Position numbers and translations under genes: made by a program. A stretch of DNA of 64,000 nt from Eledone cirrhosa (lineage: Eukaryota), in NCBI GenBank assembly GCA_964016885.1, contig OZ024748.1, forward strand, positions 47,306,001 through 47,370,000, read 5' to 3'. A model generated the notes under the pieces. It was not told where the DNA came from. It ran no database searches and saw only the letters and a list, made by a program, of their open reading frames with translations. Positions within the stretch are counted from its first letter, which is position 1, and the number at the start of each line of letters is the position of its first letter. This document shows, in pieces, positions 28,021 to 50,520 of this stretch.

Positions 28021-28252
28021 TTTTATTTTATAGAAGGAGCTTCTACAGGACTAGTACTGTTTCATTCAGATGAAATCTTCAGGAAGCTGGGTGTCATAAC
28101 TTAATATGACACCCAACTTCCTGAAGATTTCATCTGAATGAAACAGTACTAGTCCTGTAGAAGCTCCTTCTATAAAATAAAAAAATTTTACTCTGCCATG
28201 TATTGAGTACCTTACTTACTGTGGTTATCCCCGACTCAACCCGGGACCTACG
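28021..28252 (+). mobile_element. Family B fold-back element with complete hammerheads on both strands (also 39067-39266, 42825-43020)
   Basis: cttc-CTGAAGA(28121)-tttc-atct-gaat-GAAA-cag-tactagtc-ctg-TA|gaag; mirror copy at 28038-28086; tail ends cccgggacctacg(TA)n. Confidence 0.9.
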
Positions 28253-28345
28253 TATATATATATATATATATATATATATATATATATATATATATATATA
28301 GAGAGAGAGAGAGAGAGAGAGAGAGAGAGAGAGAGAGAGAGAGAG

Positions 28346-29022
28346 AGAGAATTTAGTATATCTACTAACATATGCGTACAGATGTACGCTAATGCTAGCA
28401 AATACATAAGTTATGTCATAGTACCTAGGTGGTTCAATGCAGGAGGATGCAGAACAATAATATGAAAGACGTAAAATAAGAAAATTTTAAAAAGAATTAA
28501 AAAAATTAACTTACTTACTAAAATTTTCACTCCAACTAATTAGTTTCTGCAATGGGATAAAGACAGTTACGTAATATAACCGTCGAGAATTCATTGCGTC
28601 ATCAGGGAGTCTATTCTCAGCTAAGTCTCCAGGCAATGCGCGGACACTGGAGACTCATATAAAAATAGTAATAATTCGGTAGATGGAACAGCTAGCGGGG
28701 ACTGGATTCCATGCACTGAAAAGCTCGCTGTCTCTGGTCAAATGGCAGATTCTAAAGAATCAATCACGTGACACTGAGGCTAGTCGGTAGGAGTGGGATG
28801 GTAAGATGACAGAAGCCTACTACCACACCAATAAATTAGTAGTGGTTTTGGCAGGTTTGCTCAACAAATAAATAATTTGGAGATAAATATAGAGAATTTA
28901 GTATATCTACTAACATATGCGTACAGAATTAGTTGGAGAAACTAATTAGTTGGAGTGAAAATTTTAGTAAGTAAGTTAATTTTTTAAATTCTTTTAAACA
29001 TTTTCTTATTTTACGTCTTTCA
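28346..29022 (-). mobile_element. Retrozyme-like element, about 545-nt monomer, hammerhead at 28529-28610
   Basis: actcc-CTGATGA-c-gcaatg..cattgc-a-GAAA-ctaattag-TT|ggagt; direct repeat 28346-28382 = 28891-28927; inverted copy 28936-29022. Confidence 0.8.
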
Positions 29023-30609
29023 TATATATATATATATATATATATATATATATATATATATATATATATATATATATATATATATATATATATATAAATG
29101 AAAAGTATAGAAATTATTGTAGCAAGAAGCCAACAGTATTCCATAATATATAAGTGACTATAGCGTCAAAATGGAAAAATAGTTAACGTAAGATGTGGGA
29201 AAATAATTCAAACTCAATTAAAAAAGAATCAGGATATAGATTCATCCACAGAATTTGATGAAATCCAGGGAAAAATCAATAGAGCCTTAACTCAGAATAA
29301 AATAAAGTCTAAAATACTCATCCTTCAATTTGGAAAAACTACAAATGCTCTGTATAGTCTTAAAGACTATTTCACGAAACTTTCAGTGGGGATGGTCACG
29401 GTTAGTATCGATCATCAGCAGAGCTCAAGGACACAAGTGGAATGAGAGAAAATATTGCGAACTTCATATCGATATGTCCATGTTCGTACCTTATATTTCC
29501 CGTATTATAAGCATACTTGACCTTCAGATTGTAGTACATTTAATATATATGCATACTTATACACACACACACACACATGTGTATATATATATATACACAC
29601 ACACAAACATATATATATATATATATATGTATATATACATATATATACATGTAGATATACATATGTATATATATAACTATATATATATTACTAAATAATT
29701 CAGTTTGCTGAAGTTCAATAAATATCAATATTTACATTGGAAATGATTTTGATTGTTTTAGTTATTTACTGGGAACTAACAAATTGATTTATATCTAAAA
29801 ACTATAACATACACACACGCACGCACATATGTATATATATATATATATATATATATATATATATATATATATATATATATATATATATATATATCATATA
29901 TATGATGAATACACTCACACATATTTGTATAGGTTTGTATATATGTAAGTAGACCCATACATATATATATATATATACGTGTGTATGTATATATGTATAT
30001 ATATATATATATATATATATACTTATATATATATATATATATATATATGTGTGTGTGTGCCTGTATGTGTGTGTGTTTGTGTGTGTGTGTGTGTGTCTGT
30101 ATGTGTGTGCAGGTTTATATATATATATATATATATATATATACTTATATATATATATATATATATGTGTGTGTTTGTGTGTGTGTGTGTGTGTATGTGT
30201 GTGCAGGTTTAGACACACATACAAACACAAACGCCAAATCATATACATGCATACATACATATATACATACATACATACATATACATACATACATACATGC
30301 ATACATACATACATACATACATACATACATACATACATACATATATATATATATATATATATATATATATATATATATATATATATATATACATACATAC
30401 ATATAGAATGTGTTAGTGGTAGTTATATTTGGTAACTGTAAGTACACCAGTTTGACCTCTGCTCATCAGAAAATGACCTCGTATCAATTTTTGGCAAGAC
30501 TTCATGTTTGAAAACTGATAATCTGATAAAATATATCAACAGTACAGTGTTGCTTGCAGCCATGTAAACACAGCGAGTTTAGTCTTACATTTGACATGAA
30601 GGACATTAG

Positions 30610-32185
30610 AGAACAACAACAACAACAACAACGACGACACCAACAACTAAAGGCAACATCCAAAAACAACAACCCAAAGTAACAAAAAAAAAATAACAAC
30701 AACCATTAAGCAACAACAACAACAACCAATACAACAACATCAACAATAACCAATGTAACAACAACAACAACAACAACAACAACAACAACAACAACAACAA
30801 CAACAACGACGACGACACCAACAACTAAAGGCAACATCCCAAAACAACAACAACCCAAAGTAACAAAAAAAAAAGTAACAACAACCATTAAGCAACAAAA
30901 CAACAACCAATACAACAACACCAACAATAACCAATGTAACAACAACAACAACAACAATCCAAAAAGCAACAACAACAAAAACAATCCAAAAGCAACAACA
31001 AAAACAACAACCAAAAATACAACAACAACAACGACTACTACTATAAAAATAGAATCAACTCAGAGACCAACAACAACAGATGCAACAACCAGAAGCAAGA
31101 ACAACCACAACAACAACTAGAACTACTACAGCAACAATATAATCAACACAGTGAACAACAACAACAACAACAACAACAACAACAACAACAACAACAACGA
31201 CGACACCAACAACTAAAGGCAACAAACAAAAACAACAACAACCCAAAGTAACAAAAAAAAAATAACAACAACCATTAAGCAACAACAACAACCAATACAA
31301 CAACAAAAACAACAACCAAAAATACAACAACAACAACGACTACTACTATAAAAATAGAATCAACTCAGAGACCAACAACAACAGATGCAACAACCAAAAG
31401 CAAAGACAACAACAACAACAACTAGAACTACTACAGCAACAATATAATCAACAGAGTGAACAACAACAACGACAACAACAACGACACCAACAACTAAAGG
31501 CAACATCCAAAAACAATAACAACCCAAAGTAACAAAAAAAAAATAACAACAACCATTAAGCAACAACAACAATAACCAATGCAACAACACCAACAATAAT
31601 CAATGTAACAACAACAACAACAACAACAACAACAACAAATGCGACAACGAAATGCAACAACACCTACTACTACTACTACTACTAATACCACCACCACTAT
31701 TACTACTAATACTACTACTACTTTTACTACTACTACTACCACTCCTACTACTACTACTACTACTACTACTACTACTAATACCACCACCACTATTACTACT
31801 ACTACTACTACCACCACCACTACTACTACTAATACTACTACTAGTTTTACTACTACTACTACCACTCCTACCACTACTACTACTACTACTACTACTACTA
31901 CCACCACCACCACTACTACTACTAATACTACTACTACTTTTACTACTACTACTACTACTACTACTACTACTACTACTACTACCACCACCACCAGCACTAC
32001 TACTACTACTACTACTACTACTACTACTACTACTACTACTACTACTACTACTACTACTACTACCACTACTACTACTACTACTACTACTACTACTACTACT
32101 ACTACTACTACTACCACCACCACCACCAGCACTACTACTACTACTACTACTACTACTACTACTACTACTACTACTACTACTACAA
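30610..32185. repeat. (CAA)n higher-order repeat followed by (ACT/ACC)n
   Basis: Recurring gacaccaacaactaaaggcaaca..cccaaagtaacaaaaaa..accattaagc blocks. Confidence 0.9.
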
Positions 32186-32480
32186 TAGAATCAACAAGAA
32201 GAACCACGACAGCAGGACAGATATATATATAACTCCACTCTCCGGGAGCTTCCAACAGTAATAAAACTGGTCTATATTATATTTTATCTGATGAAAGCAC
32301 ACCATAATTTAACTTGGTGTCCTTGAAATATGTATAATGAAATAAATATGGTTTTATAAATATAGTTTCCATTTGTTAATATCGTATATATATACACATA
32401 TATATATATATATATATATATATATATATATATATATATATATATATATATATATATATATATATATATACATATATATA

Positions 32481-32670
32481 ACGAAGGAAATGTGGTAAGG
32501 AACCAGGTGGACCATAACGCACCAAAGTACTCAATACTTAGGGTAGTAGAGTGGGTAATAGGAACAAGTAAGACCCCGACGGCTGAGCTCAAGCCGTTTC
32601 GACGGCTAATTCTGTCCAGAATTAGCCGTCGAAACGGCTTGAGCTCAGCCGTCGGGGTCTTACTTGTTCC
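32481..32670 (-). mobile_element. Family A fold-back element (also 45418-45546, 46858-47055, 48337-48530, 51974-52176, 52914-53106; diverged 27755-27945)
   Basis: GAAA-cggc-ttgagctca-gccg-TC|ggggtc is a hammerhead stem III and cleavage site; perfect about 55-bp arms. Confidence 0.9.
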
Positions 32671-49521: not shown

Positions 49522-49539
49522 ATATATATATATATATAT

Positions 49540-49650
49540 TAAAATAAGAGATTAAAGCTTAAGCAAAGAATCGCTGTTTTCACCCTTAACGGGATCTTCT
49601 GAAACTAAAAAAATCAATCTGTGAACGCAGAATTAAATATTTCGAGAAAC
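49540..49650 (-). mobile_element. Family C hammerhead fragment (also 60755-60820 minus; fold-back copy 60858-61066)
   Basis: gttt-CAGAAGA-tccc-gttaa-gggt-GAAA..tgc-TT|aa; the CAGAAGA core is present in three copies. Confidence 0.75.
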
Positions 49651-49973
49651 GTTACACACACTATATATATATGTATATATATATATATATATATATATAC
49701 ATATATATATATATATATATATATATATACTATATATATATACACACTATATAAATACATATATACACACACACTGATAGCGAAGTCAATGTCGTAATGC
49801 AGACAGCCAGACATACAGACAGATATTATAATGCCGCAACGTTATATATATATGTATCATTCTAAAAAGAAAGACTAAGAATTATAGAAAGAGATTGCTA
49901 AATCGCCTAATGAAGGAATTCCGTCGGAAAGGTCCAGGAATAAAGAGTGATCTATGTAGGTTACAGAGCTTAA

Positions 49974-50170
49974 TAGTTATGTAATAAACAACATAAGGTA
50001 ATTATTTCATTTACCAGTGGTTTCTTGAAAGCAAACAAAATTTGCTTTCAATCATCAGAATGAAAAAAATCCTGGTTTTTTCATTCTGATGATTGAAAGC
50101 AAATTTTGTTTGCTTTCAAGAAACCACTGGTAAATGAAATAATTACCTTATGTTGTTTATTACATAACTA
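49974..50170. mobile_element. Perfect palindrome with canonical hammerheads on both strands
   Basis: tttcatt-CTGATGA(50086)-ttgaaagcaaa-ttttg-tttgctttcaa-GAAA-ccactgg-TA|aatgaaa. Confidence 0.9.
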
Positions 50171-50220
50171 TATATATATATATATATATATATATATATA
50201 TATATATATATATATATATT

Positions 50221-50520
50221 CAATTACATAATAAACAACACAATGTAATTATTCCATTACCAAAGGTTTCAGGAAACTAGACGTCCTTTACATAAACGTC
50301 TAACTCGTTCGTCAGATGAAATAGTTGTCTATTAGATGAAATTGTTAACTAATAGATAACTATTTCACCTGATGAACCAGCTGGACATTTCTGTAAGAAA
50401 CGTCTAGTTTCCTGAAACCTTTGGTAATGGAATAAATAAAATTAAGTTGTTTATTATATAATTAAAATACCTCTGTACTATACATAGAACACTCTGCTTT
50501 CCTTTATCTTTTCTACAAAA
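50221..50520 (+). mobile_element. Older fold-back element, hammerhead at 50361-50434
   Basis: tatttcac-CTGATGA-..ctggacatttct/agaaacgtctag..-GAAA-cctttgg-TA|atggaata; diverged mirror arm at 50221-50335. Confidence 0.75.

Follow-up and report, generated by a model that had tools for sequence, protein, structure and literature searches.

Fold-back inserts in the Eledone cirrhosa window

The window analysed here is a stretch of 64,000 nucleotides from Eledone cirrhosa (GenBank assembly GCA_964016885.1, contig OZ024748.1, positions 47,306,001 to 47,370,000 of the forward strand), and positions below are counted from its first letter. The host genome is 3.0 Gb in size and rich in microsatellites. 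Five fold-back inserts in this window, which we call by the positions 28021, 39067, 42825, 49974 and 50221, carry hammerhead ribozyme motifs in mirror image; they are short stubs of Penelope-like elements (PLEs), of the head-to-head insertion type already known in (TA)n. An earlier note on this DNA had claimed all five from the letters alone, and all five are present well above chance: after microsatellites were stripped from the window, exact 20-nt inverted repeats had 22 centres, and not one of 20 order-3 Markov controls had any. The inverted repeat at 28020-28183 has 96% identity over 166 nt and that at 50219-50466 has 83% identity, while 59 of 60 positions are paired at 39146-39266, 57 of 60 at 42900-43020 and 95 of 98 at 49974-50170.

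The palindromes belong to three families: A (28021, 39067 and 42825), B (49974) and C (50221). All of them sit in (TA)n or (CA)n, and every element has a tail of about 65-75 nt that lies outside the palindrome on one side only (Table 1). The arm that carries the tail is called long-ended below, and its partner short-ended. The tail at 49909-49975 had been overlooked in the note, and the element given as beginning at 49974 actually starts at 49909.

Table 1. Arms of the five fold-back elements; negative offsets are counted from the hammerhead core, positive ones from the inferred RNA start
Feature	Positions	Strand	Details
Family A short-ended arm with hammerhead	28021..28083	-	core 28082, stem I 6 bp, reaches -17 from core
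Family A long-ended arm	28098..28252	+	starts -23, core 28121, tail 28184-28252, then (TA)n
Family A long-ended arm	39067..39209	-	tail 39067-39145, core 39202, ends at inferred +1 A
Family A short-ended arm	39208..39266	+	core 39210, stem I clipped to 2 bp
Family A long-ended arm	42825..42961	-	tail 42825-42899, core 42956, ends +2, T replacing +1 A
Family A short-ended arm	42964..43020	+	core 42964, no stem I
Family B long-ended arm	49909..50075	-	tail 49909-49975, core 50058, ends -17, short of main family stop -45
Family B short-ended arm	50076..50168	+	core 50086, then (TA)25
Family C short-ended arm	50221..50326	-	core 50315
Junction insert	50327..50354		built from short local copies of arm ends
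Family C long-ended arm	50355..50529	+	extra G, then family stop -13; core 50369, tail to 50529, then (CA)n

Hammerhead motifs

Every arm carries a type I hammerhead core (CUGANGA, GAAA and a GUA site), and stems I-III accompany it in the intact arms, though not in the clipped arms with cores at 39210 and 42964. On the plus and minus strands, respectively, stem I has 4 and 6 pairs at 28021, 2 and 9 at 39067, 0 and 5 at 42825, and 7 and 7 at 49974. At 50221, the printed sequence gives a mismatched first pair followed by 7 pairs in the plus arm, and 8 pairs in the minus arm. A complete ribozyme on both strands, as had been proposed for these inserts, is thus found at 28021 and 49974, is doubtful at 50221, and is absent at 39067 and 42825, the two copies with a clipped stem I on one arm; the note had mentioned such clipping in some copies. 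As claimed, the arms turn immediately 5' of stem I, with 4-40 nt between the cores in four copies and 53 nt in 50221. An apparent loss of 5 nt from stem I in all family A copies was rejected on recognising the GUA register.

The type I core and the short stem III are shared with the minimal hammerheads described for metazoan PLEs, whereas the G-C pair at 10.1/11.1 reported for those is replaced by U.U in family A and U-A in family B, and family A also differs in a stem III of 4 bp with a 6-nt palindrome in its loop (Cervera and de la Pena, 2014, PMC4209133). The same account describes metazoan PLE hammerheads as inactive in vitro as monomers, and it already reports pairs of opposite-strand motifs 100-700 bp apart in Schistosoma, the layout seen here. 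An Rfam search gave nothing at the gathering threshold, and no hammerhead family was among the 150 weak matches listed of 328; those weak matches were rejected as hairpin and microsatellite noise. Family A does not consist of non-coding tandem repeats each with a hammerhead, as a non-LTR retrozyme would, but of dispersed head-to-head stubs of a coding element.

Seven further single hammerhead-like cores, of other families, lie at 2006 (-), 5045 (+), 5165 (+), 28605 (-), 29418 (-), 32288 (+) and 45130 (+), two of them enclosed by the wider inverted pairs 44443-45149 and 28463-29022.

The parent element

Thirty close genomic copies of family A have a fixed 3' end but differ in how far they extend 5', and their inverted arms measure between about 60 and >700 bp. 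The long copies run through a microsatellite-rich 3' untranslated region (UTR) into an open reading frame (ORF), and open frames of 754-823 amino acids with a YRDD motif were found. About 1.9 kb separates the end of the ORF from the hammerhead at one locus (L035). At another (L068) the hammerhead and tail stand on both sides of the ORF, so that family A has its pseudo long terminal repeats (pLTRs), hammerhead included, in partial tandem (pLTR-ORF-pLTR).

Sequence searches of the PDB with these ORFs returned nothing useful and Pfam searches were nearly blank, RVT_1 being matched by only one of 50 aligned relatives. The ORF of the sister family A' is 74% identical to that of family A; its structure model has a mean confidence (pLDDT) of 88, and the top six PDB matches to this model are all telomerase reverse transcriptases (RTs), which points to a single ORF with a telomerase-like RT in family A as well. 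A VY..YIG motif is visible in both ORFs, and their best homologue scores above the Pfam GIY-YIG cut-off, while the ORFs themselves have no Pfam match. The family A ORF holds all the motifs of the Hydra clade, namely the RWK-type motif, DKT, the CxCX5C linker, and CxxC and CxH flanking E and N. Among the 50 relatives, RW[RK] is found in 48, DK[TS] in 50, CxCx4-5C in 48, CxLCxxE in 43 and CxH in 49. The parent of family A encodes a telomerase-like RT and a putative endonuclease (EN), with Hydra-clade motifs.

The Hydra clade of C-terminal EN+ PLEs, as presented by Craig et al. (2021, PMC8557442), has the same RW[RK], DKT, CxCx5C linker, CxxC and CxH, the insertion into (TA)n that is also found here, and a hammerhead; the likeness is one of motifs. 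The units differ in being >3 kb long here, owing to the microsatellite-rich 3' UTR. An inverted 5'-truncated copy with a one-sided tail is found in families A, B and C, and accounts of EN+ PLE insertions share with our elements the head-to-head inverted copy, the tail at one end, the pLTR-ORF-pLTR structure, the (TA)n target and the hammerhead in the pLTR (Craig et al., 2021, PMC8557442; Arkhipova et al., 2013, PMC3846280). The tails in those accounts are 30-40 nt long vs about 65-75 nt here, and their descriptions of the insertions give no fixed turn point, no cap-derived G and no rule of one long and one short arm. The elements and their mirror layout are already known, and the families themselves are new. 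Families B and C are 73% identical over 104 nt. A parent ORF for family B is likely, as broken ORFs of one family are colinear with B arms in four of ten long loci (L378, L379, L380 and L382).

Two further families in the window share this anatomy. Family A', which has many intact ORFs of 758 amino acids and looks young, is represented by a palindrome at 20963-21130, in which the left arm stops inside the hammerhead and only one arm keeps the core, and by a single arm at 19704-19760, which begins at the stop site described below and adjoins (TA)n. Family D forms palindromes at 9989-10188, 32470-32670, 46848-47055, 48328-48527, 51965-52176 and from 52914 with a tail to 53107, and a half copy near 45435-45545. 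It has a one-sided tail of about 85 nt and a G-marked stop below a TATA-like box; it lacks a CUGANGA core, though a piece with GAAA, stem III and GUC is present. At least 29,136 family D arms are found genome-wide, and pieces of PLE ORFs adjoin them at L393, L394 and L396.

Where the arms stop

The counts for family A were made at the loci that hold the first 100 cores in a list of 2405, all on one contig. Family B was sampled as 59 loci plus 11 picked as pairs, and family C as the 30 best matches to a tail-containing query. The family A core has 2405 exact matches in the genome and about 590 palindromes have both cores within 30 nt, the two counts being made with patterns of different length. 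Among 96 family A arm ends, 54 lie no more than 7 nt from the core, 2 at 14 and 25 nt, and 40 at 48 nt or more, and the sharp stop falls on the A at -6 from the core (or G at -5). The 87 family B arm ends have their peak at -43 to -45 (19 arms), the others being shorter (25), at -46 to -90 (7) or longer (36); in family C, 19 of 41 arms stop at -13.

A TATA box starts 29 nt above the stop in families A and D and 30 nt above it in A', and initiator-like motifs stand at canonical spacing from it in all three, the stop of family D falling within the initiator-like word TCAGT or TTAGT. Similar TATA and initiator-like motifs have been described in the Adineta pLTR (PMC8557442; PMC3846280).

The base in front of the stop is often a G that the genomic element does not have. 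In family A, where the partner arm does not cover this position, G was found in 15 of 22 arms vs 14 of 75 neighbouring insert bases, taken from the next four insert positions (Fisher p 2.4e-5), and the genomic base is C. Genome-wide, 1064 family A arms have a base other than C before the stop, and the 100 of them that were listed have G in 52, A in 46 (34 as AA, many being symmetric joins) and T in 2. All 11 scored family B arms have G where the genome has T, 3 of them possibly templated by the partner arm. G precedes the stop in 16 of the 19 family C arms, where the genome has C; several of these may be partner-templated, and the window copy is included. In family D, G was found in 9 of 25 scored arms, with one locus counted twice and about half of the arms running on into genomic sequence.

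In full-length LINE-1 insertions, such an extra G is described as marking the cap (PMC11702581). We read the sharp arm stops as capped transcription starts and the G as derived from the m7G cap. Of the 22 family A arms, 11 have A as the first base after it, 8 have T, 2 have G and 1 has C; the T, C and G might, as a speculation, reflect misreading of a modified cap-adjacent base. By the same reading, the long-ended arm of the 28021 copy would belong to a read-through class that extends beyond the RNA start. The base at 39209 fits a cap-derived base, though it could equally be that of the partner arm, and the junction of the 39067 copy recurs among other genomic family A copies. Read-through arms were inspected for a G that would have been carried over had the growing strand jumped from the cap to the 3' pLTR; of 14 such arms, 3 have G, 6 have T and 5 have A.

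The stop could instead be a place where the RT pauses at the hammerhead, or a processed RNA end such as a splice acceptor or a ribozyme product, with the G added without a template. In families A, A' and C the stop does coincide with the 5' edge of stem I, in A' and D it follows a pyrimidine tract and AG, and the 5' end of helix I is described as the place where an intron of Drosophila virilis Penelope ends (PMC4209133). However, family B stops 45 nt above its core with no AG there, family D stops where there is no core at all, no constant upstream exon is found beyond the stop, and the TATA spacing is held in three families. In addition, the arms that begin at the cleavage site number 22 at most, vs 1064 in the start-site class. 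These 22 are the arms with no A in front of the cut site; stem I microhomology would explain 8 of them, which are joins, just as well, 2 are point mutants, and arms joined after an A are missed by this count. We consider a pause or processed end improbable, and the start of a capped RNA a better account of the stop.

Pairing of the arms and a proposed mechanism

Pairs were counted in the loci of the stop sample and in 20 loci picked for a short gap. In 55 of 56 head-to-head pairs, one arm is long-ended and the other short-ended. Counted from +1, the family A core lies at +7, the short end at about +60 to +70 and the long end at +138. Short local copies at junctions are what microhomology-mediated end joining is expected to leave; the 50 listed junctions differ widely, and their inserts are of this kind. 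At L257 and L269, the G is present on the two arms alike, yet the +1 base differs between them, and sister copies suggest that the arms are separate DNA copies. One family A palindrome (L247, G000:C1:118474000-118479000) occurs in three tandem copies about 1.06 kb apart.

The explanation that we prefer, with a probability of roughly 0.62, is that these palindromes are minimal PLE insertions in (TA)n. It builds on the family A parent, on the two fixed 3' ends that are used once each per palindrome, on the sharp 5' stop and on the non-genomic G. The element's enzyme would nick both target strands, two cDNAs would be started, one apiece from two fixed positions close to the RNA 5' end, both cDNAs would run to the capped RNA start, and their two ends would be joined head to head. 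The short arm would then be a second RNA-templated cDNA, and the joining would be microhomology-mediated repair. The longer palindromes would arise where the 3' pLTR of the RNA served as template. The RNA start and the sites at which the RT begins would flank the hammerhead, which would account for its doubling.

A precedent for much of this is the Poseidon element of Anolis, PAc, for which an RT that starts at two internal sites, one at either limit of the tail and both 3' of the hammerhead, extension of both nicked strands by the PLE enzyme and an uncleaved RNA template are described (Frangieh et al., 2024, PMC11167929). PAc is of a different clade, and the start site is reported not to differ between strands in vitro, vs one site per arm here. 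Twin priming in LINE-1, as described in PMC11702581, has in common with our elements the second primer from the other target strand and the extra G at a full-length 5' end; it inverts parts that do not overlap, whereas here both arms copy one 5' segment from fixed starts. Our literature search, which covered the main texts of mostly open-access papers, found no cap-marked stop or one-long-one-short rule for PLE inverted junctions.

Several observations weigh against this explanation. The 55 of 56 rule needs the very strand difference that was not seen with PAc in vitro (PMC11167929). In family B, 25 of 87 arms fall short of the family stop, no TATA match was found above it, and the ORF copies colinear with the arms include no intact one; in family C, no clear link to an ORF was seen in five long loci. 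The initiator-like CAG of families A, A' and D has the look of a splice acceptor as well, and the window copies at 28021 and 49974 stop elsewhere than their families do. Lastly, the G is found on 11 of 11 long arms vs 4 of 11 short arms, which is near background, and at those junctions a snap-back of the long cDNA fits equally well.

Snap-back is the strongest competitor: a single long RNA-templated cDNA would reach the cap, fold back and copy itself to the short site, with later central deletions blurring the asymmetry. Besides the constant G on long arms, the long arm reaches further 5' in 13 of 41 tight pairs and the two arms are equal in 19. Snap-back after full-length cDNA synthesis is reported for R2 in cells (PMC11371274), and self-priming on an antisense template is how Arkhipova et al. 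explain the palindromes at head-to-head junctions (PMC3846280). In the other 9 of the 41 pairs, however, the short arm reaches further and its sequence is absent from the long arm, as it is at three loci (L240, L246 and L243) where the long arm is tail only (+70 to +79 onward) and the short arms start at +1, +1 and +7, respectively, two of them being kept exactly to +1. The long arms at these three loci end a little above the short start site, a pattern that would arise if one RT had stalled behind another on the same RNA. Moreover, the commonest junction, with a 7-nt centre, is seen with either arm clipped, unpaired short-ended arms with long 5' extents occur, and a second rule would be required for a halt at the short site. 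On balance we lean towards two cDNAs; a single cDNA snapping back is a real but clearly less probable alternative.

That a palindromic MITE-like unit spreads as one piece might be suggested by the recurrence of some junctions, with 7-nt and 8-nt centres. The diversity of the 50 listed junctions with their locally templated inserts largely refutes this, as do the occurrence of the recurring 7-nt junction in both long/short orientations and arm lengths from 60 to >700 bp, and we give it hardly any weight.

Are the paired ribozymes functional?

The earlier note had proposed that the hairpin competes with the catalytic fold, so that such palindromes could silence the ribozyme in host introns or feed ADAR editing or small-RNA pathways. 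The first part agrees with folding in silico, in which the whole element favours the hairpin by 46-85 kcal/mol vs 0-9 kcal/mol in a single arm, and the hairpin would be predicted to win over the ribozyme fold. Palindromic repeats are also described as hyper-edited ADAR targets in other animals, with lizard Penelope heavily edited (PMC5625713). That the palindromes persist for such a selected function is nevertheless very unlikely in our judgement. The mirror layout follows from how the element inserts, and it arises without any hammerhead too, as in the six family D palindromes of the window; only one arm retains the core at 20963, and one arm is damaged at three of the five window loci. The arms also diverge independently, with 27 private changes vs 1 shared in 37 arm pairs (41 less 4 removed for indels or diverged arms). 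A>G accounts for 7 of 59 changes in 121 arms, with no excess that would indicate edited templates and no sign of selection. Editing as a side effect is possible and needs no selection. The paired ribozymes are probably a by-product of insertion rather than a self-silencing device.

Since at most 22 arms begin at the cut site, the templates may have been mostly uncleaved, consistent with the Anolis result, and there may be little cleavage to silence. No exon of a host gene was identified near the five loci, and five scanned window ORFs gave no host gene family there.

Other features of the window

More long core-less palindromes lie by microsatellites at 49123-49520, 51185-51526, 51687-51888, 27040-27263, 24224-24338, 21306-21411, 528-691 and 52688-52783. 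An open frame of 504 codons at 5632-7143 (-) is mucin-like, with Thr-rich repeats of 29 amino acids and no Pfam match, and a tandem array of 26 copies of 42 bp at 14959-16072 is open in several frames. Fragments resembling the C-terminus of LINEs are found at 37868-38623 (+), which matches a C2H2 zinc-finger, and at 1132-1716 (-).

Implications

Retroviral minus-strand strong-stop DNA is a short cDNA that ends at the RNA 5' end, a likeness to the arms described here. We put forward, tentatively and as a possibility that we rate well below our preferred explanation, a wider view: the PLE RT would begin near the 5' end of its own capped mRNA, as a dimer that primes each target strand at one site, and would make strong-stop-like cDNA in the manner of retroviruses. 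The palindromes, in their tens of thousands, would then be frozen twin products that map the transcription start site of each family to the base, and the bases other than A at +1 (11 of 22 arms) would come from misreading of a methylated cap-adjacent A.

The origin of the inverted repeats and tails of PLEs is called undefined in a review (PMC8557442). The junctions yield predictions at the level of single bases for the existing in vitro system, namely one start per target strand, cap-ended cDNA with an added C, and joining by end repair, and PLE promoters can be mapped from them independently of RNA data. The stubs would, moreover, be a large genomic source of perfect hairpins, with about 590 tight palindromes in family A besides the arms of family D, which, if transcribed, could feed editing.

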